In this document: positions 1 to 21,161 of the stretch, one piece after another | Position numbering within the stretch: the first letter of the stretch is position 1 | Layout: every line of letters starts with the position of its first letter | Assembly: GCA_000743035.1 (NCBI GenBank) | Contig: CP008936.1 | Span: 750,001-782,000, forward strand | DNA length: 32,000 nt | Direction: 5' to 3' | Origin: Candidatus Paracaedimonas acanthamoebae | GTDB lineage: Bacteria; Pseudomonadota; Alphaproteobacteria; Caedimonadales; Caedimonadaceae | Program-made: the position numbers and the translations under genes | The notes under the pieces: generated by a model | Databases searched by the model: none | What the model saw: only the letters and a program-made list of their open reading frames with translations | What the model was told of the DNA's origin: nothing

Positions 1-100
1 TTATTGATGTTTTTTAAAGATAAAAAATTTTCATTGCTAAAAAATGATTTTTAAGTTTATTGCTGCTTAACTGGACAAAATGCATAGGGGGATTTAATTA

Positions 101-3100
101 ATGCGGTCTATTAAAGTTTTAGCACTACTCATTTCAATTGTTTCTTTTCAACCACTCCAAGCAAGTTCTTCGACACCTCAACAAAATTCTTTAGAATCTT
201 CTTTGATCGTAAAGTCGGAACCTTCTTCAAAAGAATCATCAGGCTTGTGGGGACAAACAAAAAAATTCATTTCTTTGTGGTTTTCTTCATTTAGATCCTC
301 TTCTTCCAGCCCAAAAAACCTTTTGGAGCATACAGAAAATCCGAATTGGTGGGCTGCTTCTGAAAAGGATGACCAACCTTGGGCAAAAGAATGGAGTAAA
401 TTGGTTGGACATGTGGCAGAAGAAAACGCCAAGCAAACAAGAATACTTTTAACGCAAATGGTGTATCGAAAAGGTGAGTTAGAACAAAGCTCGGACGAAT
501 ATTATCAAGAACTTGCCGAATCTTTCAAAAAAACGCCTGACTTTATTAAAGGGCAAGATATAAATCTTATCAGTAAGCTTGGAAGTACAGGTTTAGGAAA
601 AAGATTAATTTCCTTAGTAAATAGATCAATAAACTATTTAGAAGATCAACATACAGCAGAAGGAAGATCAGCTCTTATTGAGTATACTCGTCTTCTGTCT
701 GATTTCTACCTTAGTATTGAAGCAGAAGGCATAGATGATGATCATTTTGATCAAGATTTATTTCAACAAGGTTATGATTATAAAAATGTATTAGTTAAGA
801 TTAGTAAACTTAAAAGGCATCCAGGAAACCTTGCTTCCCTTAAAAAGCTCATTAAGGATCTTTATATCAAACTTGATGGCGGTAGATTAAGTGAGCTCTC
901 TCATGATACATTGAGTTCTCTAGGAATAGAATTTGGTCAACCTCACAGAAGATCAAGCTGGCTTTCAAGTCAGAAAGTAGGCACAGGGCTTTTGTTCTTA
1001 GTTGTTTCCAGTGGGATGATTACCGCCGCTGCTGCCGCAAGGCCTCCGCTTTTAGATGCTTTCTGCTCCACAAATGAATTCAATTATGGGACTTGTGAGA
1101 CATCATTTAGTACGCCGATTGGATTTGACACCGAAATCGCTAGCCTTAAAAGCAATTCTTTTTTTCAAGATATTATTACGAATACCATTACTCAGACAAG
1201 TCGCTCCAGTAGCATATCTGACACACTTGATAGGCTTAGTTCTATAGGCACTCAATTTTATGGAGAAATTATTACCGCAAGAACAGGCTCTTTTTCGGGT
1301 GGGAATGTTACTTCAACTATGTATTTTGACATTCCACCCTATTTAGGGATGAGAGATGCCCCTATATCAAGCACTCAGTATGATCGCATTACTTTTAATA
1401 TGACAGCCATGAGTGATACAACAATGCAAACCATCAACTCTTACACACGTACAGGCCCGATGGGACCTTCTTACTATGGACAAATCCCAAATAGCGAGCG
1501 GATGATTCTAGCGATCACCGATGTCAACCAAACCTGGCCGATCTATGGGGTTGTGATAGATCGTCCTTCTGGCGGAGTACCAACTATTATAAGAGAGGGA
1601 ATTATCACATCAACTGTACAGGCCGTCTATCCTGACTCTCTTTCAATAACCCCCGTGAATAATGTGAATCCGAACGGTCTCCTTCCGGTTGAAAGCGTTG
1701 ATAGCTTTGTAAGCAGCCTTTATAGTGGACAAGTAGCAGGACCAGATGGTTTAAATCCCCGTCCTATTGCTCAATATTTAGAGGATATTGGTTTTTCAAC
1801 TTCAAGCTCCTTTCTTGCAGCCAAAAATTGCCTAGAAAGCCCCGGGGTAAGCCCTTTGGCCTGTAGCTCTCAGTTTGCTCAAAACTCTGGTTTTACCACG
1901 GCATTATATGTTTATGCGACACAACCTAATTCGGTTGTCACTCTCTCCCGTAATCTTTTGCAGGGGACGAATTACACCGAAGGAACCTATCAAGCTGGCA
2001 GTGGAAATGTTCTGGAAACATTGATGAGCTATACGTGGAATCCTGCTTTAGGGACAGCAATGCGGACAAACTCAACCCTTCCCATCCCTTTTAGTACTCT
2101 TCGTGGGACCTTACCTCTTAATCAGATTGAAAAGATTTGGATCTATAATCCTGATCCTGCGAATTCAGAATTGGGGTATGTGGTCAGAACAACTCAAAAT
2201 GCGTCAGGGACAGCAACTTCTTACTATGTTGTTCCTGGAGAAGGGATTACGACATTTGTCCCTACCCCCTCTCCAACCCCAACATCTTCTGGCCCTACGC
2301 CAACAGATCAACCCTCCTCAGGTCCATCATCTTCAGGCTTAAGCGAGACCGCTAAAATTGGAATTGGTGTGGGGGCGGGTGTAGGAGGCGCAGCTCTCCT
2401 TACAGCTATAGGCGTAGGGGTCGGTTGTGGCGTCCTTAAGCATAAAATTAAAAAATCCAAACTAAAAGATCTTGAAGCAGGAAATAATGATATCCCTCTT
2501 GGTCCTGTGACAAGAGGAAGCACTGTGACAAGAGAAAATTTTGCCCCGACAGGAAAAGGAATTGTCTCAGGTATTTCAGTGACAGGTACGCTTAATAAGA
2601 ATCAATATGTTTTGTTTTTTACAGTTACTGAGGAAGAATTTGATGAAATTGTCAGAGAAACTGGGCTTAAAATGCAGTTTACGCCTGAAGAAAAAGAGCT
2701 GAAACCAGGTGAAAAGCCCAAAATGAATCTCATTTTAGGGGGAGGAAATTTTGGTCAAGTCCGTATTGCTAAAGACCTACAAGACGAAAAATTTGTGGCC
2801 GTTAAGATTATCTCTGGCAATGAAAAAGTTAAAAGTTCTAGGAGAGAAGGAGATATGCAATATCGCCTTAGGGATGCATTTCATGTTCTTCCTTTAGATG
2901 ATTATTTATATTATGCCCCATCTACTGACAGAGCTGCGAGTACAAAGCTCCGAAAGAAAGCTTTTGGCAATACAGACCATGCAGATGAAGATCTTCTTTT
3001 GCAATTCACTCCTTTAGCAACTCTTGGGAGTGGGGAATCTTTAAGCTATTACCTCTCATTCTTAAAGGGGAAAGACGATGAACTGAGGGATAAGATTGTG

Positions 3101-4096
3101 GCCTATGTTGGTTACTGTTTATTGACAGGCCTCCTGAAGATGCATCATTCAGGTATTGCCCATCTTGACGTCAAACTTGATAATTTACTTCTGAGCTGGG
3201 ATGGTGATGTTTGGGTAGCTGATATGGGATGTGCCGTTCAAAAGACGATTTTGTCAGGGGGGATTGGCGATTTTAGGAATTTTGATTTGGCGCGTTTAGA
3301 ACATTTACGCCATTTAGGGAAAAAGAAAAAAGGAGACCTTCGTGCAACTTTCAATGGTCATGCATCAGATAACTTTGCCGCGGGTCTCGCCATACTTCAT
3401 TTAATTCTTGGGGAGGAACATCCGTTTCAAGAATTGTTTGATCCGGTCATAGAAAAAAGGGCCAGCATTCCAAATTACATGCTTAACAAATGGACTCAAG
3501 AAACCTATGAAGCTGCGCTTGAAAAGGCTTTTGGTAAATCAAAAAATAATGATACCGGAATTTTCAAGGTGATTCGTGGATTAACTTTTACTAATCCTCA
3601 AGAGAGATGGTCAACTGAGAAAGCTCAAAAAGCACTTGAAAAACTTCTCCCTGAAGAAAGTGGTAAAAAGTTGTTTTCACAATTCGAAAAGAGGTGGCAA
3701 CAAATAGCAAGCCAATCGCAACAGGTAGAAAATCCCGAAGAAGGAAGTGATCTTTCTTCTAACTATCTATATAAGAAAGAGGCTATCTATTATCACGACA
3801 TCTTACAGGAAGAAAACCATTCTAGTGAATTTTATGGAAAAGACCTTTCTGTTTATGAGACTATGCAAAAGCCCTATGAAGAGGAAAATAAGCGTATTGG
3901 GGCGGCGAGTTCCTCAACCGATGTATATGTTGACACTCTAGAGAAACCAGAGGGAGGAGAACCTACTACTTATACAATCATTCCAGATGAAGAAGATGGG
4001 GCTACTTATACAATCCCAGATGCTTTTAAAAGTTCCCCTCCTCCGCGCCGTAATGGAAACCCAAGCAATACCCCCAACGAATGGGTCTATCAATAA
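101..4096 (+). CDS. Large membrane-anchored protein with C-terminal eukaryotic-like (Hanks-type) protein kinase domain
   Basis: 1331-aa ORF with AGGGGGA Shine-Dalgarno-like element just upstream of ATG 101. N-terminal signal-like segment (VLALLISIVSFQPLQASS). Pro/Ser/Thr stalk VPTPSPTPTSSGPTPTDQPSSGPSSSG (2258-2338), then Gly/Ala/Val TM helix IGIGVGAGVGGAALLTAIGVGVGCGVL (2357-2437). Kinase motifs: GGGNFGQV (2738-2761), VAVK, HLDVKLDN (3161-3184), DMG in place of DFG (3221-3229), NPQERWS (subdomain XI-like). Confidence 0.8.
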   Translation: MRSIKVLALLISIVSFQPLQASSSTPQQNSLESSLIVKSEPSSKESSGLWGQTKKFISLWFSSFRSSSSSPKNLLEHTENPNWWAASEKDDQPWAKEWSKLVGHVAEENAKQTRILLTQMVYRKGELEQSSDEYYQELAESFKKTPDFIKGQDINLISKLGSTGLGKRLISLVNRSINYLEDQHTAEGRSALIEYTRLLSDFYLSIEAEGIDDDHFDQDLFQQGYDYKNVLVKISKLKRHPGNLASLKKLIKDLYIKLDGGRLSELSHDTLSSLGIEFGQPHRRSSWLSSQKVGTGLLFLVVSSGMITAAAAARPPLLDAFCSTNEFNYGTCETSFSTPIGFDTEIASLKSNSFFQDIITNTITQTSRSSSISDTLDRLSSIGTQFYGEIITARTGSFSGGNVTSTMYFDIPPYLGMRDAPISSTQYDRITFNMTAMSDTTMQTINSYTRTGPMGPSYYGQIPNSERMILAITDVNQTWPIYGVVIDRPSGGVPTIIREGIITSTVQAVYPDSLSITPVNNVNPNGLLPVESVDSFVSSLYSGQVAGPDGLNPRPIAQYLEDIGFSTSSSFLAAKNCLESPGVSPLACSSQFAQNSGFTTALYVYATQPNSVVTLSRNLLQGTNYTEGTYQAGSGNVLETLMSYTWNPALGTAMRTNSTLPIPFSTLRGTLPLNQIEKIWIYNPDPANSELGYVVRTTQNASGTATSYYVVPGEGITTFVPTPSPTPTSSGPTPTDQPSSGPSSSGLSETAKIGIGVGAGVGGAALLTAIGVGVGCGVLKHKIKKSKLKDLEAGNNDIPLGPVTRGSTVTRENFAPTGKGIVSGISVTGTLNKNQYVLFFTVTEEEFDEIVRETGLKMQFTPEEKELKPGEKPKMNLILGGGNFGQVRIAKDLQDEKFVAVKIISGNEKVKSSRREGDMQYRLRDAFHVLPLDDYLYYAPSTDRAASTKLRKKAFGNTDHADEDLLLQFTPLATLGSGESLSYYLSFLKGKDDELRDKIVAYVGYCLLTGLLKMHHSGIAHLDVKLDNLLLSWDGDVWVADMGCAVQKTILSGGIGDFRNFDLARLEHLRHLGKKKKGDLRATFNGHASDNFAAGLAILHLILGEEHPFQELFDPVIEKRASIPNYMLNKWTQETYEAALEKAFGKSKNNDTGIFKVIRGLTFTNPQERWSTEKAQKALEKLLPEESGKKLFSQFEKRWQQIASQSQQVENPEEGSDLSSNYLYKKEAIYYHDILQEENHSSEFYGKDLSVYETMQKPYEEENKRIGAASSSTDVYVDTLEKPEGGEPTTYTIIPDEEDGATYTIPDAFKSSPPPRRNGNPSNTPNEWVYQ

Positions 4097-4110: not shown

Positions 4111-4137
4111 GCGAGAGCCAGATTTAGTGGCTCTCGC
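4111..4137 (+). terminator. Putative rho-independent terminator after the kinase gene
   Basis: Perfect 9-bp stem GCGAGAGCC / GGCTCTCGC with a 9-nt loop, 15 nt after the stop codon. It is followed by a T-rich but interrupted tract (TAATCTTTATTC). Confidence 0.5.
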
Positions 4138-4382: not shown

Positions 4383-5252
4383 ATGATAAGTAGAGCTGGT
4401 CGTCAATTACTCAAATTAGCTATGATGTGTTTTCTTCTAATACAATCTTTAAACTGTTTTGCGTCTGATGCGTTGGAGGAAGAAGAAAAGTGGGAAATGA
4501 TGATTCCTAAAAAAGAATTTCCCTTGGTTGAAGAGAAAAGACAAGAAATTAGTCTGAAAGAATTAAAGCATCTATTTCAAGATGGTCTTATAAACCTTCA
4601 ACAAACCCCGCTCAGTATAGTCCAAAAGTTTCCTTTCGCGAAGAGAACTTTTCGCAAAACTCCTCAACTTCACTTAACCTTTGAGTATGAAGAGTTTAAT
4701 TGGTTAATATCAAATGATCGAGATAACCAGATATTTCATTTATTTAGAGCTGGGGTTGAATGCTTAAAATACGTTTATGGTCAGCAATTAACATTCTCTT
4801 ATTCTAAATATAAAGATCATTCTCTGGGGAGCATGATGCATTATTTTTATGATATAGGTATTCAAGGAGAAAATGATCAAATATTTTTTAAATTTAATGC
4901 GGTAGAGTGCATTTTTGCATCCACATATGAAGAAATTCTGTCTTATAGTAAACTGTATTCTAGAAAAAAGAGAACTTCAGAAGAGTCCAAGATAGAAAAT
5001 ATTCAAAAAGCGATGTGTCTTTATCAAGTTCCTGTCATTGTTGCTTTATCGTTATCTAATGATCTCAATGAAACCTCTTGTAAAATATTAGTTCTTTATC
5101 ATTTTGATAATGATACTAAAAATTTTATAGGTAAAGATCTGTACTCAAATAACGAGATAAAAATTCCTTATGTGGCAATTCAATTATTAGCTCTTGAAGC
5201 TTGGGTTGGTTATAACTCAACAGATTTCACCTCGCGAAATCAAGGTCTATAA
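4383..5252 (+). CDS. Hypothetical secreted protein (no recognisable family)
   Basis: 289-aa ORF with N-terminal signal-like segment (LLKLAMMCFLLIQSLNCFASDA). No motif I can assign. No clear SD before ATG 4383, so the start is uncertain. Confidence 0.55.
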   Translation: MISRAGRQLLKLAMMCFLLIQSLNCFASDALEEEEKWEMMIPKKEFPLVEEKRQEISLKELKHLFQDGLINLQQTPLSIVQKFPFAKRTFRKTPQLHLTFEYEEFNWLISNDRDNQIFHLFRAGVECLKYVYGQQLTFSYSKYKDHSLGSMMHYFYDIGIQGENDQIFFKFNAVECIFASTYEEILSYSKLYSRKKRTSEESKIENIQKAMCLYQVPVIVALSLSNDLNETSCKILVLYHFDNDTKNFIGKDLYSNNEIKIPYVAIQLLALEAWVGYNSTDFTSRNQGL

Positions 5253-9058: not shown

Positions 9059-10303
9059 ATGCACAAAACTCAACGACATGTTTTTATTGATTATTTGAGA
9101 GGTTTTTTGGTTGCGCTTGTGGTTTTAGATCATGCGTGCCATGCCTATACAGAACACTATTCTAAGTTTTGGTTTTTCCCGGATTTTGAGCACAGTATTA
9201 TCTTTGATATTTTTCATCTACATAATGACAGCTTTATGATGCCGTCGCTTTTCTTTTTAGCCGGGCTTTTTATCCTTCCTTCTTTGAAACGAAGAGGTTA
9301 TTTAAGCTTTGCAAAAGAAAGATTTTTGCGCCTTGTAATTCCTTATATTGTAGGACTTCCGCTCATTAGTCCCCTTCTCTCTTATCCTCGTTATGTTCTG
9401 AATGAAAATCCCAGCATTGGCTATTGGCAGTATGTTACAGAAGTATGGGTTCATCGTTTACAAGCTGGGCCATTTTGGTTTTTATATTACTTAGTTCTCT
9501 TAAGTACGATTACGGTTGTTTTATATGCGGTAGTTCCTAAGATCTTTACTTTTCTTGGGAAATTTGCTGAATGGCTTATTGCAAAACCGCTGCGTGGCTT
9601 TGCTGTTTTTTGTTTTATTAGTTCTCTTATTTTAAGCATTAGTGACCTCATTTGGGGAGCTCCTTGGTGGATTGGTTGGTGGGCAGACTATAAATTTTTT
9701 TATGTTCGTGGTTCTCGTTTTATTCTTAAGGCTTTCTATTTCTTTCTTGGGGCTGGTTTTTCGCAAATTGTCATTCTTGACAATGAAGCTTTCTGGGAAC
9801 AACTTAGCAATAATTGGCAAAAGTGGGCTCTCTTTACACTTGGAGTTGCGGCTTGCTATATGGGCTATACGTTAGAGTTTTTTGATGAAGGCGTTTATAG
9901 TGATCATATTCGCTACTATATCGCAGAGCAAAGGGCCTATAATGCTGACTGGGCTGACGTGCTAGTCGGTTTTTGGCCGATTTTCTTTGAACATGCTCCT
10001 AAAGTTTTACTTCGAACAACGCTGCTGGGGATTTTTATTTGTTCTCAACTTGTTACCTATTCAGCCGTTTTTTATCGTTTTCTGAATAAAGGCAGTCTTC
10101 AATGGGCCTCATTGGCTGCTGCAGCTTATGGGATTTATATTATTCATGAACCCTTTGTCGTCTGGTCGCATTGGTTCTTTTATGGAGGGCAAGCTCCGCT
10201 TATTATCCGTTTTATTGTATCTGGATTCGGGGCACTTTTTATTTCATGGTTGATTGTAAACAAAGTTCTTCTGCGTCTTCCAGGTTTTAAACGTATTTTA
10301 TAG
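9059..10303 (+). CDS. Acyltransferase family 3-like integral membrane protein (paralog 1)
   Basis: 414 aa with about 10 hydrophobic segments. N-terminal FIDYLRGFLVALVVLDHACHAY resembles the acyltransferase_3 / OpgC-like signature. GGAGG SD precedes the ATG. Confidence 0.8.
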   Translation: MHKTQRHVFIDYLRGFLVALVVLDHACHAYTEHYSKFWFFPDFEHSIIFDIFHLHNDSFMMPSLFFLAGLFILPSLKRRGYLSFAKERFLRLVIPYIVGLPLISPLLSYPRYVLNENPSIGYWQYVTEVWVHRLQAGPFWFLYYLVLLSTITVVLYAVVPKIFTFLGKFAEWLIAKPLRGFAVFCFISSLILSISDLIWGAPWWIGWWADYKFFYVRGSRFILKAFYFFLGAGFSQIVILDNEAFWEQLSNNWQKWALFTLGVAACYMGYTLEFFDEGVYSDHIRYYIAEQRAYNADWADVLVGFWPIFFEHAPKVLLRTTLLGIFICSQLVTYSAVFYRFLNKGSLQWASLAAAAYGIYIIHEPFVVWSHWFFYGGQAPLIIRFIVSGFGALFISWLIVNKVLLRLPGFKRIL

Positions 10304-10321
10304 CAAGAAGGGAAAAGCTTG

Positions 10322-11569
10322 ATGCAAGGACAGCGCTATATATTTATTGATTACCTGAGAGGGTTTATTTTTGCACTTATGGCAATCGATCATTCTTTGC
10401 ATGCATATGCGCAGAATTGGGGACAATTTTGGTTTATTCAAGATCACGATCGTAGTCTAATTTGGGATGCTTTCTACCTTTTTGATCAAAGCATTATCAT
10501 GCCAATGCTTTTCTTTATTACAGGGCTTTGGGTATTACCTTCTCTAAAAAAATATGGATTTCAAGCATATCTTCGTCGGCGCTTTGTAAAGTTAGGCATC
10601 CCTTTTATTATTTGTATTCCTTTAATTGTACCTTTAATGACGTATCCTCGCTATACCCTTACTGTAGATTCCGATATTAGTTATCTTGATTACTGGTTTA
10701 ATGTTTTCTTGAGCGGAAAAAAGCTTCAAGCAGGCCCTTTATGGGTTATGTATGGCATGTTTTTATACAGCATGATTTTAGTTGGCCTCAGTGCGCTTCC
10801 AGGCATCATGAATAAATGGAGTAACTTCGTTCGCTTGCTCGTTAACCGACCTCAGTTTGGTTTTATTTTTCTTTTTCTGCTAAGTGCTCTTATTTTAGGT
10901 ATGAGTGATCTTACTTGGGGGGCTCCTTGGTGGATTGGTTGGGGAGTTTTCTATCTTCCAGGCGCACGATTTTTGCTATATTTCTTATACTTTATGCTCG
11001 GAGCAGGCTTTAGTCAGGCGGGACTCTTAGAGGACCGTTTTTTTTGGAAGCGACTCTCTGATCGACTGCCATGGTGGGCGGGTATTATGGGGCTGTCTGC
11101 TTTAGCATATGTGGGATATTCTCTTATTTTTATGCATGATGGAGCTTATAGCGATGTGATTCGACATGCTTTTCATGAATTCTTTGCTCTTGGTAGTTCT
11201 TGGAGTGAAATGCCTGAATTTGTAAATCAACAAGGTTGGCAATTAATTGAGAGTCATGCGCCTCGTGTTTTAATTCGAACAACTTTGCATGGAACTTTAT
11301 GCCTTTTCCAGGTTCTAACTTTGTTGGCTTTTTCTTATCGCTATTTTAATAAAGAACACCCCGTGTGGAGTTCGCTTGCTCGGAGCTGCTATGGCATCTT
11401 TTTAACTCATGAAGCCATGGTTATTTGGCTTCAGTATTTTCTGATTGGCATTGAGCTTCCTCAGATTTTAAAAATCATCATTATTGCTGGCCTTGGTTTT
11501 GGAGGCTCCTGGCTCTTAACTGAGAAATGGTTGCTTAAAATCCCCGTTTTAAAGAAGGTTATTGGCTAA
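10322..11569 (+). CDS. Acyltransferase family 3-like integral membrane protein (paralog 2, tandem duplicate)
   Basis: Colinear with the previous protein. Shared blocks: FIDYLRGF, MP.LFF..GL...PSLK, QAGP.W, WGAPWWIGW, LGAGFSQ, AP.VL.RTTL.G. I prefer ATG 10322 over TTG 10319. Its stop overlaps the convergent MBL gene stop by 3 nt. Confidence 0.8.
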   Translation: MQGQRYIFIDYLRGFIFALMAIDHSLHAYAQNWGQFWFIQDHDRSLIWDAFYLFDQSIIMPMLFFITGLWVLPSLKKYGFQAYLRRRFVKLGIPFIICIPLIVPLMTYPRYTLTVDSDISYLDYWFNVFLSGKKLQAGPLWVMYGMFLYSMILVGLSALPGIMNKWSNFVRLLVNRPQFGFIFLFLLSALILGMSDLTWGAPWWIGWGVFYLPGARFLLYFLYFMLGAGFSQAGLLEDRFFWKRLSDRLPWWAGIMGLSALAYVGYSLIFMHDGAYSDVIRHAFHEFFALGSSWSEMPEFVNQQGWQLIESHAPRVLIRTTLHGTLCLFQVLTLLAFSYRYFNKEHPVWSSLARSCYGIFLTHEAMVIWLQYFLIGIELPQILKIIIIAGLGFGGSWLLTEKWLLKIPVLKKVIG

Positions 11570-14459: not shown

Positions 14460-17400
14460 TCATTTCACCATATATTTTAATGGGCCTGGAAAAACATTAA
14501 CTAAGTTTCCTTCTGCATCTGTTAATATTGTAATAATAGAAGTTGTATTGCTTCCATGTTGTGATGGTAATTTACCAATAATTGTACCAACGTCTACTTC
14601 TCGAACATACCTTCCACTTTCAACTATTTTAGTAATAGGCGTTTCAATAGTTTTTTTATCACTTAAAATAGATCTTACTTCTTCTTTAGGAATTGTAAAC
14701 TGAGACTTATTTGTTTTATCGAGGTTCATATGTTTACGCCATACTTTATCAATACCAGGCTTAGTCTCTCCTTCTACGCGCTTATTGGGTTTACCTGTTC
14801 CCTCTATAATATTAATTCTTGATTGAGCGCGAGGGGGCGCATAAATATCTAAATCATTCCCAGGAACGCTAGCTTTAGTAATGCCAGGAGCCTCTCTTCT
14901 TGTCAGCTTCTGCATCCCTTTTGACCAAGTTTCTGAGAGGAGCCCATCAGCGGTGAGGTAAAGTTCTTTGGCTTTTGTAAATCCTTTGCTTAAGGGGGCA
15001 AACACCTTAGCTATCACTTGTGCAAAGGCAGGGTTTTGGGCAATATAAGCTTGCCATACCATCTCAGCCATAGGACCAGAAAGCTTTGCAACTTTATAGA
15101 CAACTTTACCAGCCCCAAGGGTTACTATCGTTATAGCCCCATCAACAGCTACTTTCTGAAGTGCTGCTGCAGGGCCTTCTCTCTGCGCAGTTTTAATCAC
15201 ATCATAAACTTCATAGGCGGCAAGCCCTATCCCAACCGCCAGCATGATAGCATTATTTTCAACTGCATTTGTACTTGTATGTGCCCCAATACTTGGATCT
15301 TGCCCCAAAAGCGCTGCGACGGTGGCACCACTGAGCTTCGCGAAGGCAAGTTCCTTGGAAAGAGCATCATAAAGCTCAAGCTGGAACTTCCCATCCTTTA
15401 AAGACTGTCCTTCTTTTTCCGCCTTGGCCAGAATATCGAGCGCTTTATTTTTTGCTATACCTCGGCATTCCTCCATCACCACTTCAGAGACAATGCTTCC
15501 AATTGCTCCAGACATAAGGCCTCTTGCGGATGAGTCTAAAAACCATCCTGAAAGAGCGCCAACACTTCCATGTAAGGCTTTATGTTCAAAGTAACCCATT
15601 GGTTTGCTTGGATCGGCATATATGCGGCCTATATGATAGGATGCATACGATGCAAGCGTATCAACCCCTAAGTTCTTAACTCCATTCTTAACAGCTTCTT
15701 CCACAGAGATACGCCCTATCAGGCATTGAAGCGGCGTCTCAACAACTGTTTTTAAAGCATTCGCTTGTAAGAAATCCATAAACTTGACTTGCTTTTGCGG
15801 ATCTGTAAGCGCTGTTAAACCTGGGTGCAGATCAATCTTCAAAGCCTCGCTTATATTTTGACAAAGACCTGCACTGGTCATGGTAACAGCGAGAGAGCGC
15901 ATGCTTGCAGGAGAGATAAGCTCTTTACCTGCTTGAATGGGATTTCCTGTTCTTAAGACAGAACAAGTAAGTTGACTACAAATGGTCGAGAATCCCGCAT
16001 TGGCCACAGCCATCCCGGTAGATGAAAGTGTCACAGCAGGCACCATCACTGCTGCGCCTGCCGCTGTTGCAGCTGGCACTACGCCACAGAGAGATTCACC
16101 TAGAGAATTAATTAAAGAAGCCCCCCACCCTTGCGTTGCCAGGGTTACGCCTAATGCGACAACGACAAGGGCTTCATTTGGAATCAGCTGTTTATGATGC
16201 GCCCAACTTTTTTGCCAACTCTTCAGGTGATAGGTTGTCTCAGCAAACTTCCCAATGATTTGCGTGCGATCTTTATTCCAATCAACGGATTGAAGCTTGA
16301 TTTCTCCTTCATCAACTTGACGAATGATCTGATTAACAAGCAATCGACAAGGTTGCATGACTTCATAGCCGCCTTTACATCCCACATCACTTTTTAAAAA
16401 GGGACTCTTGGTGATGATTTGATGGAAATACTCAAGCCAACTTATCGAAGGCGCAAATGTGGCTCCTTCTTTCGTGTTGTCATAAATAATATCCGCAATA
16501 AAGTCGGTACCTCTGTAAATGGCGCTTTCTGTGTTCGTATGAATGGCCGGGGCACTGAGAGTAGTGGGAGCAAAATTTGCGCTTTGTCTAACACTGTGGC
16601 TATGCGAAGAAGAAAATAGACCATCCGTTTCGCTCTCTGTTTTGGTTGTGTTAATACCAACTGCTGCATGGGTTTCAAGGTCTTTTCCTTGGAAGATGAT
16701 TGCCACAATAGACTTGAGGAGAGAACCGGTAATGGTTGTCTTGGCTGTGTCGCCAGATAAGATCGTGACCTCTTCTTTCTCTGAGACAAGTTCAGAAGGA
16801 TGCGAAATTGTGGTTTCTTGGATGGTATGCGTCGTCGTATCCCCTTTGAAGAACCCGCCCTTTTTTGTATGGTAAGAGTGCTCAGTCCGCTTTAGCTGAG
16901 CTGCTTCAATATCTGAATTTCCCTCAAGTGAGCCCGCAATAAGCCGCAGTAAAGAACGCAGCTTTGTAGCTGTCATTTGGAAGCCTTTCTTGCCAAGAGC
17001 GATAACCTCCCCTTCTTCGCTCTCTAAACTTGTAGGAGAATCGAGAGATTCTTGTGTCCCTTTGCCATGAAAATGCGTACTGATGGTCGAAAGGAATGAA
17101 AGATGATCTTCAGAGAAAAAGTGCATCCATTTCTTTATCTTAATGGTCGTATCTTTAACAGTAAGAGGACCTTGGTTGTAAACATCCATTGTGTCGGCAC
17201 TCATTCCTTGAACGGAGTTCATGTCTTCTTGAGCAACAAATAAACTTAAAATCTGATGGATCTTATCACCTACCTGGCTTAAGCCAGGGAGAATCATTGA
17301 ATGCCTTGCCTTCTGGACGTCTTCGAGCGTTACAATCGCTTTTTTCTCATCCTGGCCAAAGCTGATTCCGTTTTGGATGAGACTTTGAAAGAGGGTGTCT

Positions 17401-20400
17401 TTATTTGAGTGATTAATGCTCACTCTGCCCGCCACCTGAGAAAGGGTTGCTTGTGTAAATAAGTTATACAATCCCAAAGATAACGTTTGTAAGGGGCTTA
17501 AAAGACGACTTGGATCTAAGGGGATCTGATAAAGATGGTGATTTTCTCGGGTACTCAACATGATCATTTGATCCCCTACTAAAGGAACATAAGGACTTCC
17601 AAGAGGAACTGTTGTAAGGACTTCGCCTATCGGTGTCAGACGCAGGAGACTGTTTCCTTTAGCTTGTGCTTGAATAGCACTTGTTAAATTCACTAACGCT
17701 GGCCCTGAGAGTGTTATTTGGGAACGCATTTGTTTGGAGTTATCAAAGAGGCCTGATCCAGAAGCTTGGATGGTAATCGTGCCTGAATGCTTGTTTCCAG
17801 ATAAAACGTAATTCCCGGTATTAATGTGGATGGCGATAGCAGATTGAACAATACAAGGATAGCTAAAAATTATCCGTGTGAACCATTGTGTCCCATTAGT
17901 CCACTTATGAATACAATTGGCAGGCTCTTCAATATAATTCGAGAGGCTTATTTTATCGTTTATAGCTATGCCGTTCACATAAATTTTTCCTTGTGTACGA
18001 ACAGTACTCCCACAATTAGTGACTTTATGCGTATTAATATGAATATCACCAAGGGAATCCAAGGTTGCTGGACCTGAAGTAGGCCTTTCCCATCCTTCAC
18101 CATCAAAAGAGCTTGAATCAGGTATAAATTTAGGGGGCTTTCCTGTATGTTTGTATTCATAACCTTGTATGAGGGTAGTTCCTAAAGAAAATATCTTTCC
18201 GGCTGTATTTTGAATATTTTTTGTAGCTTTAAAAGTGCTTCCTTTACCACTGAAGACGGTTCCACAGTCCACAATAACATTGCTTGCAGAGTCTATGATA
18301 ATATTATCTTCTGAAGCGAGATAAGCTTCGTTGCATTTAGAGGCATCGTCAAATAGGTGCTCTCTAGTATGCGTTGCTCTCCTTGCAGTCGTAGGACTAA
18401 GATCTGCAGTCGAAAAACTTGTATTTGCATAATAATATTTTTTAAAATCCTCATCTATTCCTTTCTGGGGAGCCCCGACGAGAGCATTTCCTTTTGTTGC
18501 TTTTATAAGTGTGGGCCCTTTGCCATACATTTTCCCAAAGCGATTATCGATACTATGAGCTGTGACAGTAAGGGATCCTTCGGTGGAAGCAATTTCGCCC
18601 ATAACTGTATTACTACTTCCGCATGTCAGCGGACCGTTGACATCGAATGTTAGAGTGGGGGCTGTAAACTTATGCGTAGTTGTAAAGAGACCACCCACAT
18701 ATAAAATGAGATGACCAATATTGGCAAAGTCATAGTTTTTGGTTGTGGTTATGGCAGGGGTATAAAAAACAACTTTTCCTTGTTTATTCGTACTTACTCT
18801 AGAAAGATCTGCAAGCGTTCGGCTGCTGCGATAGCGGGATGTGAAAAGTATTCCTTCTTGTGAACGGATGGCTTTGGGTAAAGTTTGAACATCATACGTT
18901 AAATCTTTTTGACTTTCGATCTCTCCTTGTGAGCTATAATTCTTACGTGCATCACCTTTTAGAACAAGGCGGTTTGCTGTAGTTGAAGTGTCATCCTCTG
19001 TGAAATGCCATTCGTTGTCTTGGAAGCTGATTAAACTATTATTCTTTAAAGTACCTATGATCGTATACTGGCCACTCCTCAGAATAAGACTTTTATTATT
19101 GATTAGATTAGTAAAAAATAGAGAACTATTTTGAAGTTCAAGGGTTTGATCATTTTGAATGTCAAGAGGAGAAGTACAACTTATATGCTCAAAGAGCCAC
19201 TGCCCATAATTATGAAATTTCGTTGGCTTGAATTCTAAAGTCCCATTCCGCCAGACAATGGTGCCCTGGTTAGAAATGGGGCCTGAATCTAACTTTAAAT
19301 GACCTTCATGAAACCATTTTCCTTCATTGTTAAATTCTCCAGCTTCTTGAAGCAATGAAAACTTTTGTTGTCCATTAGTTTCCCCTGTGAGTAATGATCC
19401 CTTATTCAGGATATGGCTCTTGGTCACTTTAATCGCTTCTAAAGCTTCAATAACTCCTTCCGTAAGGTTGTGGAGTTTTCCCCCTACAATTGCCAAAGTG
19501 GTGAACATCATTTTACCTGCATTTTCTATGAGGCGCTGACTCACATCTATGGAACTTGATTTTAAGGTTCCCAAATTATGAAGCGTATACGAAAGAGCAT
19601 CCTCCGGCCTTCCTTGAAAAGATAAGTGATCGACGAAAATATCCGCATCCCGATCGTTAACAAATGACTTATTCTGTCCTCCTAAACTAACTCGTTTCCC
19701 TCTGACCAAAGCTCGAGGGCCTTTGCTTTGGGTTTTATTTATAAATTGCAGGATTGAAAGTGTTGCTGGCTCCTTTAGATCTAATAGATCCAAAGTATGG
19801 TAATTCTTGAATAGGCCATTGCCGATTAATTGTTGGAGTGAAATTTCTCCTTCATTGGTCATCTCTCCTTGTACATTCAGGATTAAGCCTTCTCCCTTAA
19901 TTGTTCCTGTATTATGTCCCTTGGCTAGACTTAAGTGTTTAGTCTCAATGTCTCCTTGATTCATAAGCTCGGAGTTGACAGCGAGCTGATCAAGGATTCG
20001 GAGTGAACTTAAAGATGAATTGATAAAAGGTTTCCCCTTAACCACCATTTTATGAGCTTGCCAAAATCCATTATTTGAAGCCTGGCGCTTAAGCGTTGCT
20101 TCTTTAACGTAGAAAGCGCCTTCATTTACCATAGAAGCCCCCGAGGGAGATGAACTTAGATCAGCAGATAACTCTTCTGACACTCTGACTTCAGCTTCTT
20201 CACTATTTTTAAAGAGTTGGTTAGTGGATGCGATATGAAGGTAGGTACTCTCTATTTTTGCGCCTTCAGCTGTAGGCATTCTTTTTTCATTGGTGATTTG
20301 ACTCAAACCCAGCACCGCGCGTTCAGCTTGAGTTCCTTGAAACTGACAATAGGCATGGTTAGTAAGCTGCCCCTCACCGGTTAATCGTTTAACGCGTAAC

Positions 20401-21161
20401 CCTCCCTCATTAATGGCTTCATGAAAGATATGGAGGTGATCTGCAACAACGGCATGGGAAAAATGTGTTTTTTGAGATTTTAAGGTTAAGGATTTGGCAT
20501 TGAGTGTTTGGATGAAAAGTTCTTGTGATGTTTTAAGAACGAGATCATAAGCTGACTGAAATGGAGATGTAGCTAATTGATCAAAAAATATTGCACCATC
20601 TTTTAAGATATTAACGGTGGCAAAGCCTGGAATATACCACACCATGCTATCATTTTTATAGTTAACTAAGGAAGCTCCCTTGCATAAAGACAAGAAGGTA
20701 TCGGCTTGGGCCTCAGCTACTGGTGTAAAAAATGGCGTGATCCGGTCTTGTTCAACACTTGCGGTATAAAGGGTCTCAAAAGATTTTTGGGATGTTTTTG
20801 ATTTTCGTGAGACTTTAAACTGAATCGCTTTATTTTCTGGATTAAGCGTTTTAATTGAAATTTTATATTGGTAGCTCCCTAACGTTGTGGGTTGGGATTT
20901 CTCTAAAATTCGTTGTGCTTTTACCATCTCATCAACTGATGGGATGTAGGATGCTTTTATAGCTGACACGTCCTCTATAGGAAGAGGTCCTTGAATGATG
21001 TCCTTAGACGATAGAGTTGAATCTTTGAACCTAGGAAAATGTTTATTGTATGTGCTTGAAGAATGATCAACATCACAAGCAAGTGCAAATGGAGTCAGTG
21101 ATTGTATTGAGTAAGAGACCAAAACTAAGCGCGCAATCACTTTGAAAAACTTATTTTGCAA
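14460..21161 (-). CDS. CdiA/FhaB-like polymorphic toxin (beta-helical repeats, pretoxin region, VENN motif, variable C-terminal toxin)
   Basis: 2233-aa ORF. TTG start at 21161 with GGGAGG 8 nt upstream and a signal-like N-terminus (VIARLVLVSYSIQSLTPFALA). Long Asn/Gly/Thr-rich repetitive region. FHA-2-like segments (YHTKKGGFFKGDTTTH, TDGLFSSSHSHS). Gly/Ala/Ser-rich pretoxin (DUF637-like) region. VENN at 15252-15263 (GTTGAAAATAAT on the minus strand), followed by a 263-aa tail. Confidence 0.8.
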   Translation of the reverse strand: MQNKFFKVIARLVLVSYSIQSLTPFALACDVDHSSSTYNKHFPRFKDSTLSSKDIIQGPLPIEDVSAIKASYIPSVDEMVKAQRILEKSQPTTLGSYQYKISIKTLNPENKAIQFKVSRKSKTSQKSFETLYTASVEQDRITPFFTPVAEAQADTFLSLCKGASLVNYKNDSMVWYIPGFATVNILKDGAIFFDQLATSPFQSAYDLVLKTSQELFIQTLNAKSLTLKSQKTHFSHAVVADHLHIFHEAINEGGLRVKRLTGEGQLTNHAYCQFQGTQAERAVLGLSQITNEKRMPTAEGAKIESTYLHIASTNQLFKNSEEAEVRVSEELSADLSSSPSGASMVNEGAFYVKEATLKRQASNNGFWQAHKMVVKGKPFINSSLSSLRILDQLAVNSELMNQGDIETKHLSLAKGHNTGTIKGEGLILNVQGEMTNEGEISLQQLIGNGLFKNYHTLDLLDLKEPATLSILQFINKTQSKGPRALVRGKRVSLGGQNKSFVNDRDADIFVDHLSFQGRPEDALSYTLHNLGTLKSSSIDVSQRLIENAGKMMFTTLAIVGGKLHNLTEGVIEALEAIKVTKSHILNKGSLLTGETNGQQKFSLLQEAGEFNNEGKWFHEGHLKLDSGPISNQGTIVWRNGTLEFKPTKFHNYGQWLFEHISCTSPLDIQNDQTLELQNSSLFFTNLINNKSLILRSGQYTIIGTLKNNSLISFQDNEWHFTEDDTSTTANRLVLKGDARKNYSSQGEIESQKDLTYDVQTLPKAIRSQEGILFTSRYRSSRTLADLSRVSTNKQGKVVFYTPAITTTKNYDFANIGHLILYVGGLFTTTHKFTAPTLTFDVNGPLTCGSSNTVMGEIASTEGSLTVTAHSIDNRFGKMYGKGPTLIKATKGNALVGAPQKGIDEDFKKYYYANTSFSTADLSPTTARRATHTREHLFDDASKCNEAYLASEDNIIIDSASNVIVDCGTVFSGKGSTFKATKNIQNTAGKIFSLGTTLIQGYEYKHTGKPPKFIPDSSSFDGEGWERPTSGPATLDSLGDIHINTHKVTNCGSTVRTQGKIYVNGIAINDKISLSNYIEEPANCIHKWTNGTQWFTRIIFSYPCIVQSAIAIHINTGNYVLSGNKHSGTITIQASGSGLFDNSKQMRSQITLSGPALVNLTSAIQAQAKGNSLLRLTPIGEVLTTVPLGSPYVPLVGDQMIMLSTRENHHLYQIPLDPSRLLSPLQTLSLGLYNLFTQATLSQVAGRVSINHSNKDTLFQSLIQNGISFGQDEKKAIVTLEDVQKARHSMILPGLSQVGDKIHQILSLFVAQEDMNSVQGMSADTMDVYNQGPLTVKDTTIKIKKWMHFFSEDHLSFLSTISTHFHGKGTQESLDSPTSLESEEGEVIALGKKGFQMTATKLRSLLRLIAGSLEGNSDIEAAQLKRTEHSYHTKKGGFFKGDTTTHTIQETTISHPSELVSEKEEVTILSGDTAKTTITGSLLKSIVAIIFQGKDLETHAAVGINTTKTESETDGLFSSSHSHSVRQSANFAPTTLSAPAIHTNTESAIYRGTDFIADIIYDNTKEGATFAPSISWLEYFHQIITKSPFLKSDVGCKGGYEVMQPCRLLVNQIIRQVDEGEIKLQSVDWNKDRTQIIGKFAETTYHLKSWQKSWAHHKQLIPNEALVVVALGVTLATQGWGASLINSLGESLCGVVPAATAAGAAVMVPAVTLSSTGMAVANAGFSTICSQLTCSVLRTGNPIQAGKELISPASMRSLAVTMTSAGLCQNISEALKIDLHPGLTALTDPQKQVKFMDFLQANALKTVVETPLQCLIGRISVEEAVKNGVKNLGVDTLASYASYHIGRIYADPSKPMGYFEHKALHGSVGALSGWFLDSSARGLMSGAIGSIVSEVVMEECRGIAKNKALDILAKAEKEGQSLKDGKFQLELYDALSKELAFAKLSGATVAALLGQDPSIGAHTSTNAVENNAIMLAVGIGLAAYEVYDVIKTAQREGPAAALQKVAVDGAITIVTLGAGKVVYKVAKLSGPMAEMVWQAYIAQNPAFAQVIAKVFAPLSKGFTKAKELYLTADGLLSETWSKGMQKLTRREAPGITKASVPGNDLDIYAPPRAQSRINIIEGTGKPNKRVEGETKPGIDKVWRKHMNLDKTNKSQFTIPKEEVRSILSDKKTIETPITKIVESGRYVREVDVGTIIGKLPSQHGSNTTSIITILTDAEGNLVNVFPGPLKYMVK

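Follow-up and report, generated by a model that had tools for sequence, protein, structure and literature searches.

Does a bacterial kinase gene that is laid out like a eukaryotic receptor kinase record an import from a eukaryote, an effector aimed at the host, or a sensor of the bacterium itself? The question is raised by the hypothetical protein IM40_03910 (1331 aa) of Candidatus Paracaedimonas acanthamoebae, which is encoded at the start of the window, that is, the whole analysed stretch of 32,000 nucleotides (contig CP008936.1, positions 750,001 to 782,000). Bacterial Hanks kinases are usually described with the kinase first and the sensor last. The original prediction had described the opposite order here, with a signal peptide, an N-terminal region of ~700 aa, a Pro/Thr/Ser stalk, a single Gly-rich transmembrane (TM) helix, a Hanks kinase and a Tyr-rich tail, and we found this order of elements. 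The layout is type-I-like and the reverse of that of PknB, as had been proposed: the kinase is C-terminal, there is no PASTA domain, and the NCBIfam model PknB_PASTA (NF033483) scored 21.9 bits against a cut-off of 450. The reading that we favour, and to which we give about an even chance, is that the protein is a membrane-anchored, non-RD (HLD) Hanks-type Ser/Thr kinase, forming a type-I-like bacterial sensor with a novel two-module extracytoplasmic region. Horizontal gene transfer, effector and sensor, the three origins or roles suggested earlier, are not fully separated by our analysis, although the sensor is favoured. We found no paper on IM40_03910 or on its kinase clade.

A module shared by a large bacterial clade

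Word-indexed searches with the whole protein, a kinase profile and an N-terminal profile returned 13 full-length relatives and a few fragments, and the next-best kinases scored 37-38 bits. The picture of a 13-member orphan family holds for the N-terminal 720 residues, at the sensitivity of word-based searching, and these residues are confined to a small family of the Holosporales type. For the kinase domain it was overturned by an exhaustive HMMER search with the kinase profile, in which the number of cluster representatives was 86 at E<=1e-30 and 456 at E<=1e-10. Six distant full-length homologues (P0020-22 and P0024-26; 1270-1311 aa) matched the N-terminal profile with 190-339 bits, and when GTDB species were scanned with one genome each, two loci emerged, the syntenic ortholog L005 and the paralogue L004, both in the Holosporales metagenome-assembled genome 'Caedibacter sp. 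38-128'.

The module of TM segment, basic cluster, juxtamembrane extension, kinase and Tyr-rich tail is common to a large bacterial clade. At least 58 of the 165 inspected proteins share a layout of a long N-region, a single Gly-rich hydrophobic segment equivalent to the TM segment of the window protein (H3), a basic cluster and a C-terminal kinase, and at least 42 of them lie outside the family. In the 42 non-family relatives, the 15-aa flanks of the segment hold on average 4.5 Lys and Arg residues on the kinase side vs 1.1 on the N side, and the N-regions contain ~14% KRDE and ~40% S/T/N/G/Q. Traits that run through the clade are the juxtamembrane extension, the motifs GDxRYFSPERL and ADxWAxGL, an insert after APE, and tails with 4-11% Tyr. 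HLD occurs in 102 and DFG in 128 of the 146 listed clade members, and DMG is peculiar to the family of the window protein. Some members carry Pfam domains (FG-GAP, LVIVD, beta-propeller, NACHT, Ank, LRR or WD40). The full-length family formed one clade beside other TM-anchored groups with a C-terminal kinase in a neighbour-joining tree of 115 kinase domains. None of the curated families names the larger clade, for which 30 cluster look-ups gave only the labels 'Alphaproteobacteria bacterium' and 'Holosporales'.

The genomic contexts of the inspected relatives were all bacterial, namely beside ValRS and LptFG, beside ClpB, RF-1 and HisRS, within a his operon, and on a plasmid-like contig. Because the layout recurs across the clade and the inspected contexts are bacterial, the receptor-like order appears to be a hallmark of an uncharacterised bacterial clade and not a singular import. 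Of the possibilities named in the original prediction, a horizontally acquired eukaryote-like gene is thus not supported as an isolated import. The kinase nests in a bacterial clade in which the layout is common, although that clade is not an ordinary PknB-like one.

Individual relatives showed settings and N-termini of their own. The gene for P0056 (L013 10001-14377; weak FG-GAP match, TM segment, HLD kinase) lies between hisA and hisF in an otherwise intact hisGDCBHAFI operon. That for P0071 (1565 aa; L012 1-16741) lies on a plasmid-like contig together with genes for a MobA/MobL relaxase, a TraG-like coupling protein, RepA, ParA, a BrnT/CopG toxin-antitoxin pair and an Ank-repeat protein, and the N-region of P0071 matches surface-repeat domains (delta-60, tandem-95, FG-GAP-like). 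In tblastn searches against plasmids, the kinase gave no match and P0071 matched through its surface-repeat domains only. Most non-family relatives with the layout (P0035, P0056, P0060, P0079, P0097, P0100, P0102 and others) have no Sec-type signal peptide by a crude test and begin with Ser-rich, acid-poor stretches; their low-charge N-regions of 800-1000 residues would have to pass a membrane without such a signal. Family members on the symbiont-like contigs L001 (1-1532; 14479-19233) and L002 (1-7889) are found near very large autotransporter genes (1584 and 2820 aa) and a gene for a RAP-domain protein, with no conserved synteny. Among family members, no gene neighbourhood is conserved except at the syntenic ortholog, and the small upstream open reading frames (ORFs) are unrelated.

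Kinase domain

Pfam Pkinase (PF00069) matched aa 878-1047 with 49.3 bits against a gathering score of 31.7, and the C-lobe was matched by NCBIfam MADS6 (aa 1006-1223), PADLOC MkoA (aa 976-1196) and SnRK2.6 in the PDB. The catalytic core had been described as nearly canonical apart from HLD and DMG, and the alignment agrees: the required residues are present, and G880, G882, F884, V887, K902, E916, H1021, D1023, K1025, N1028, D1041, G1043 and a GGxGD motif are invariant in 13 homologues. The D-x-K-x-x-N catalytic loop is of the Ser/Thr type. The HRD arginine and the APE glutamate are absent, with HLD and DLA instead, and HLD for HRD makes the protein a non-RD kinase. Non-RD kinases are active in other families, where the HRD arginine and the APE glutamate are dispensable for catalysis. 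Pairwise dN/dS (ratio of nonsynonymous to synonymous substitution rates; Nei-Gojobori) of the kinase was 0.16-0.35. Given a dN/dS below 1 and no variation at any catalytic residue, the kinase is probably catalytically competent and a pseudokinase, which had been raised as a possibility, is unlikely.

The activation segment had been called long and basic, without a clear APE. In the alignment of the 13 full-length homologues, GGIGDFRYFSPERL stands where the window protein reads GGIGDFRNFDLARL, and on this basis the APE-equivalent is D1062-L1063-A1064; the position is SPE or APE in 10 of the 13 homologues. From DMG (1041-1043) to DLA (1062-1064), the segment measures 24 residues, which is a normal length, and the basic stretch LGKKKKGDLR is part of an insert between the APE-equivalent and subdomain IX, outside the activation segment. 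We also considered a defence kinase (MADS mad6, PD-T4-6 or MkoA) and rejected it: the PADLOC matches were generic only (mad6 47 bits, PD-T4-6 <=30 bits), NCBIfam MADS6 scored 32 bits against a cut-off of 460, and no anti-phage defence partner genes are in the window.

N-terminal modules, segment H2 and membrane topology

The N-terminal region had been said to hold no recognised motif, and aa 22-720 likewise had no match in Pfam or NCBIfam. The N-terminal 720 residues comprise two modules (~93-273 and 317-720) with a segment, H2, between them. They begin with a putative Sec-type signal peptide, which has a basic n-region (R2, K5), the hydrophobic core VLALLISIVSF and the c-region QPLQA/S (slashes mark candidate cleavage sites), and which is kept in all full-length homologues, distant ones included. 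The first module, the N-domain, was modelled by AlphaFold2 within aa 60-318 with a mean pLDDT of 78.6 and a pTM of 0.73, and its helical core exceeded 88. A 4HB/HBM-type sensor identity could not be claimed for it, as a Foldseek search of the PDB returned generic helical bundles only, none better than E = 0.7. The N-domain is the fastest-evolving part of the protein (dN/dS ~0.5) and the ortholog L005 has part of it replaced or expanded.

The second module, aa 317-720, resembles an ectodomain. It is rich in S/T/N/G and low in charge (K 1%, E 3%), is strongly constrained (dN/dS 0.16-0.18), and contains two Cys pairs that are both retained down to ~25% identity, with extra Cys in some distant homologues. 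Word-based searches found no homologues of it outside the family, the AlphaFold2 prediction (pLDDT 53.6) gave no reliable model, a fold search gave no match, and hhalign detected no internal repeats. N-glycosylation of the ectodomain was rejected, as N-x-S/T sequons were not above those of shuffled sequence in 13 of 15 homologues.

The original prediction had regarded the topology as ambiguous owing to a second, weakly hydrophobic stretch. The ambiguity persists, and the stretch, which is the hydrophobic part of H2, cannot be called weak, with a summed Hessa dG of +1.5 against +1.7 for the accepted TM helix H3. H2 is composed of a basic flank PHRRSSWLSSQK, a hydrophobic core GLLFLVVSSGMIT and then AAAAA/RP with an A-x-A site. 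The same pattern recurs across 13 aligned full-length homologues with identities as low as ~25%, as a basic flank (with variants such as HRRSSWLSSQK and SRKVDWSRVSK), a 10-14-residue core, [small]-x-A and then (A/Q)RP, the sites including ITAAAA/ARP, FNAVAA/QRP, INVSAA/IPR and IQMAYA/APA. In the AlphaFold2 model H2 is an unpacked helix (pLDDT ~40), and H2 of the ortholog L005 is less hydrophobic, containing N and D (dG +4.0). Because H2 matches H3 in hydrophobicity and has a conserved signal-peptide anatomy, a single TM helix is not settled; the type-I receptor-kinase order is present, and two span counts are possible. As this signal-peptide anatomy sits just before the Cys-pair domain, the protein may have arisen by an ancestral fusion in which a helical protein with its own signal peptide was joined to a receptor made of signal peptide, ectodomain, TM segment and kinase.

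Considering its composition, its conserved Cys pairs and the adjoining Pro/Thr/Ser stalk, whose length varies among homologues, the Cys-pair domain probably lies outside the cytoplasm, and the basic cluster after H3 would place the kinase in the cytoplasm. The region between this cluster and the G-loop includes a clade-specific extension, GISVTGTLNKNQYVLFFTVTEEEFDEIVRETGLKMQF, and the wider clade matches profile positions ~20-60. Should the N-terminal signal peptide be functional, the N-domain would be periplasmic and H2 would be translocated, its basic flank being on the wrong side for a stop-transfer segment. If H2 instead spans the membrane according to its own polarity, the N-domain would be cytoplasmic, and the N-terminal hydrophobic segment would then be left unexplained.

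Tyr-rich tail and degenerate paralogues

The conserved motifs of the tail are SGE(V/I)YGxxLx(I/V)YQxMQxAY, PPPR(R/N) and a terminal EWVYQ. In addition, (D/E)EP(T/H)Y(T/Q)x[FLI]P occurs in 1-3 copies per tail in the family, and the window protein has EPTTYTII and GATYTIP. We take these motifs to resemble EPIYA-type or YxxPhi/SH2-type motifs; alternatively, the tail tyrosines could be autophosphorylation sites. The motifs persist in paralogues, including P0015 and P0017, in which the kinase is degenerate. The gene for P0015 (L006 742-2265) is complete on its contig and encodes the family signal peptide, a Ser-rich linker, a degenerate kinase and the conserved Tyr-motif tail, with neither ectodomain nor TM segment. 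Its kinase has decayed in the G-loop (ENEYSAQV), has lost the catalytic-loop Asn and has GMD in place of DMG. P0017 is found on L007-L010, and the copy of the short degenerate paralogue in Caedibacter sp. 38-128 always lies at a contig end.

Origin of the gene

When the gene was compared with its ortholog (L005 6001-10149), dS was 0.84-0.93 in the 5' half and 0.12-0.19 in the half that encodes the juxtamembrane region, kinase and tail. This split points to a mosaic gene, shaped by recombination or gene conversion between paralogues or strains. In all regions dN/dS was below 1, and the intact gene is under purifying selection.

In searches of the PDB, the family profile matched eukaryotic STE20 and SnRK2 kinases best, and the wider-clade profile matched the CAMK group best (CIPK23 120 bits, CDPK1, MARK, CHK2), with no bacterial kinase in the top 60. 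The nearest database matches outside the clade, P0018 and P0019, are eukaryotic-CAMK-like as well. An ancient eukaryotic origin of the clade is possible, and the PDB matches are not decisive for it because the PDB is heavily biased to eukaryotic kinases. We found no grouping of the protein with a eukaryotic receptor-kinase family, as its nearest 150 relatives are the clade in bacterial contexts, and giant-virus contigs gave two weak generic kinase matches and no close relative. A recent host-to-symbiont transfer of the window kinase gene is unlikely.

The locus and its neighbours

The features of the gene are collected in Table 1. Its neighbours in the window are ordinary bacterial genes, encoding GltX- and CysS-type tRNA ligases, a uracil-DNA glycosylase, a shikimate kinase, a response regulator, an outer-membrane protein and a CdiA-like toxin.

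Table 1. Features of the kinase gene IM40_03910 and its flanks, in window positions
Feature	Position (nt)	Strand	Basis or remark
Shine-Dalgarno-like AGGGGGA, 8 nt 5' of ATG	86..92	+	read from sequence
ORF, 1331 aa	101..4096	+	ORF list; hypothetical protein IM40_03910, database entry with 100% identity on a contig of 1.72 Mb
Sec-type signal-peptide-like segment, aa 1-21 (MRSIKVLALLISIVSFQPLQA/SS)	101..163	+	read from sequence
N-domain, all-alpha bundle, ~aa 93-273, Cys-free	377..919	+	AlphaFold2
H2, internal signal-peptide-like segment, aa 281-316	941..1048	+	hydrophobicity, conservation
Hydrophobic stretch of H2, aa 293-313	977-1039
Novel ectodomain-like region, aa 317-720	1049..2260	+	composition, conserved Cys pairs
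Cys pair C322-x9-C332	1064-1096
Cys pair C577-x10-C588	1829-1864
Pro/Thr/Ser stalk, aa 721-746	2261..2338	+	P 25%, S 32%, T 18%
H3, Gly/Ala/Val-rich TM segment, aa 751-779	2351..2437	+	Kyte-Doolittle peak 1.97; Hessa dG +1.7
Basic cluster KHKIKKSKLK, kinase side of H3	2438..2467	+	positive-inside signal
Juxtamembrane region, aa 790-870	2468..2710	+	family-conserved
Clade-specific extension ahead of G-loop	2570-2680
Hanks-type Ser/Thr kinase domain, aa 871-1190	2711..3670	+	Pfam Pkinase
G-loop GGGNFGQV	2738-2761	+
K902 (VAVK)	2804-2806	+
E916 (alphaC Glu)	2846-2848	+
Catalytic loop HLDVKLDN (D1023, K1025, N1028)	3161-3184	+
DMG, aa 1041-1043 (D1041)	3221-3229	+
APE-equivalent DLA, D1062-L1063-A1064	3284-3292	+	homologue alignment
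Basic insert EHLRHLGKKKKGDLRATFNGH	3299-3361	+
Subdomain IX ASDNFAAGL	3362-3397	+
Subdomain XI ERWS	3593-3625	+
Acidic Tyr-rich C-terminal tail, aa 1191-1331	3671..4093	+	Tyr 8%
Tail motif EFYGKDLSVYETMQKPY	3827-3877	+
Tail motif EPTTYTIIPDEEDGATYTIPD	3959-4021	+
Tail motif SSPPPRRNG	4031-4057	+
C-terminal NEWVYQ	4076-4093	+
Intrinsic-terminator-like hairpin, 10-bp stem (7 GC pairs), then T-rich tract	4111..4137	+

Directly 3' of the kinase gene, window positions 4383-5252 (+) encode an orphan protein of 289 aa, which has no Pfam match and begins with a signal-peptide-like segment; a protein with 60% identity is encoded at the same position in Caedibacter sp. 38-128 (L005 10759-11676), and it is absent beside other family members. 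Two tandem Acyl_transf_3 membrane acyltransferase genes occupy positions 9059-11569 (+), and the AT skew is strongly negative (-0.2 to -0.3) from 9 to 12 kb. On the reverse strand, positions 14460-21161 (-) hold a 2233-aa ORF with DUF637 and a PT-VENN pre-toxin domain that is CdiA/polymorphic-toxin-like; it has no TPS-domain match and no adjoining CdiB-like transporter gene.

Proposed mechanism and rival explanations

As a bacterial sensor, the protein would be directed to the Sec translocon by its N-terminal signal peptide, and its ectodomain and stalk would reach the periplasm of this cytosolic amoeba symbiont, as the composition, the Cys pairs and the positive-inside rule suggest. H3 (aa 751-779) would act as the anchor, and everything C-terminal to it, from the basic cluster through the juxtamembrane extension and the kinase to the tail, would lie in the bacterial cytoplasm. 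In analogy to PknB and to single-pass receptor kinases, a ligand or an envelope state sensed by the N-terminal modules may alter the oligomeric state, and the kinase may then phosphorylate its own Tyr/Ser-rich tail and bacterial targets; because the kinase is non-RD, no activation-loop phosphorylation would be needed. Several observations weigh against the sensor. The polarity of H2, with the basic side first and A-x-A last, would place the N-domain in the cytoplasm, and the hydrophobicity of both H2 and H3 is marginal (dG +1 to +2), an uncommon property in inner-membrane anchors. The layout of P0015 would put its kinase module outside the cytoplasm, and the APE glutamate is lost in the ortholog group of the window protein. 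Furthermore, no partner phosphatase, ligand or substrate was identified in the window, and to our knowledge the EPxY-type and PPPR tail motifs have no reader in bacteria.

Some of these observations would fit a host-directed effector, which we consider rather unlikely. The protein, or its kinase and tail, would then reach the amoeba cytosol or membranes and phosphorylate host proteins, and the EPxY and PPPR motifs would dock SH2/SH3-type proteins, as in EPIYA effectors. The marginal TM segments agree with this, as do the tail motifs conserved even where the kinase has degenerated (P0015, P0017), the combination of signal peptide, kinase-like domain and tail without TM in P0015, the fast-evolving N-domain and the mosaic gene. 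So does the distribution of the family, which is limited to Holosporales-type symbionts and metagenomes with at least two paralogues per genome, and so do the relatives beside Ank-repeat genes and on a plasmid-like contig, and the weak matches of some relatives to Legionella LegK1 and Ank effector models. The lifestyle is suitable too, since relatives of Candidatus Paracaedimonas acanthamoebae live unenclosed in the Acanthamoeba cytoplasm (PMC6200196). Nevertheless, a classical Sec signal peptide combined with a TM segment that carries a strong positive-inside signal beside it predicts retention in the inner membrane, no secretion-system gene or chaperone is among the window genes, and other relatives have ordinary chromosomal settings, for example within the his operon. 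The sequons are unenriched, so nothing suggests passage via the host secretory pathway. A two-span sensor is a minority reading as well. H2 would cross the membrane from inside to outside, leaving the N-domain cytoplasmic, the Cys-pair domain periplasmic and the kinase cytoplasmic, and signal peptidase I may cut after A-x-A to yield two polypeptides, as in a polyprotein. This would account for the conservation of the H2 pattern in all aligned full-length homologues, for its hydrophobicity, equal to that of H3, and for its lack of packing against the N-domain in the model, and kinase and tail would be cytoplasmic in both the full-length protein and P0015 if the N-terminal segment were no export signal. 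However, with a conserved textbook Sec signal peptide the N-domain would be exported and H2 would be made to lie the other way round, and the N and D in H2 of the ortholog also speak against a span.

That a type-I receptor kinase gene was recently acquired by horizontal transfer from a eukaryote, such as an amoeba, seems quite improbable. Although the domain order is that of receptor kinases, and both the best PDB matches (STE20, SnRK2, CAMK group) and the nearest non-clade matches point to eukaryotes, the PDB bias reduces the weight of the former. The gene has a bacterial ribosome-binding site, a terminator and a Sec-type signal peptide, its nearest 150 relatives stand in bacterial contexts, no close giant-virus relative was seen, and no eukaryotic protein with the N-terminal 720 residues was found. 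The least probable explanation, to which we attach hardly any weight, is an inactive pseudokinase that serves as a scaffold only. HLD for HRD, DMG for DFG, the DLA of the ortholog group and the presence of truly degenerate paralogues in the family would be in keeping with it, but HLD is the norm of the clade, and the G-loop, K902, E916, D1023, K1025, N1028 and D1041 are all in place under a low dN/dS. Real decay in this family looks like P0015, where the G-loop, the Asn and the DFG Asp are gone. A bolder reading, which is unlikely and which we offer as speculation, sees in the protein the best-anchored member, from a named and sequenced amoeba symbiont, of an unrecognised clade of type-I-like, non-RD, Tyr-tailed kinases. 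It would be a double-signal-peptide precursor, cut at aa 281-316 to release the helical module from a Cys-stabilised receptor, with an EPxY/PPPR tail that links it to Acanthamoeba phosphotyrosine signalling.

The locus points to a sizeable unannotated bacterial clade that is sensor-first like eukaryotic receptor kinases, mostly non-RD, and equipped with Tyr-rich tails; its interest lies in this unrecognised clade, in the internal signal peptide and in the Tyr-motif tail. If the layout works as a receptor, it raises the questions of whether the architecture arose independently in bacteria or through exchange with protists, which signal a symbiont in the cytosol perceives through 700 residues of unknown fold, and whether a two-part receptor can be built by means of an internal signal peptide. 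Should kinase and tail reach the host instead, amoeba symbionts would have a new class of effector kinase that is anchored in the membrane.

Comparison with known systems

With PknB, Stk1 and PrkC, the window protein shares the Hanks (eukaryotic protein kinase, ePK) fold, a bacterial gene and, in the topology that we favour, a single-pass arrangement of extracytoplasmic sensor and cytoplasmic kinase. It differs from them in being sensor-first and non-RD, in lacking PASTA domains, and in having a juxtamembrane extension, a post-APE insert and a Tyr-rich tail. The non-RD loop and, in the favoured topology, the full domain order with one TM helix and a basic stop-transfer flank are as in eukaryotic type-I receptor kinases, both the plant receptor-like kinase (RLK)/Pelle-IRAK group, which includes non-RD members, and amoebozoan TM kinases. 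Unlike them, it has an ectodomain with no eukaryotic homologue, an extra internal signal-peptide-like segment, and a bacterial context and expression signals, and it shows no specific sequence affinity to RLK/Pelle-IRAK, the best solved matches being STE20 and CAMK kinases.

Legionella LegK effectors are likewise eukaryote-like kinases of an intracellular bacterium. No LegK model is among the NCBIfam matches of the window protein, and T4SS_LegK1 was weakly matched by 11 of 43 relatives (best 2e-9). The E-P-x-Y repeats of the acidic tail are presumably comparable to the EPIYA tyrosine-phosphorylation sites of CagA, Tarp, Tir, Bep proteins and AnkA. What separates the window protein from the LegK and EPIYA effectors is its Sec-type signal peptide and its TM anchor with a positive-inside flank, and neither a secretion signal nor a secretion system was seen. 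With the members of the HLD clade, such as MBL0941832.1 ('protein kinase [Alphaproteobacteria bacterium]'), it has in common the motifs GDxRYFSPERL, ADxWAxGL, LLLQFxPLAxxGNG and HLDxKPxN. The juxtamembrane extension, the Gly-rich TM segment with its basic cluster and the Tyr-rich tail are common to both, whereas the family of the window protein is set apart from the wider clade by its own N-terminal modules, its signal peptide, DMG in place of DFG and KL in place of KP.

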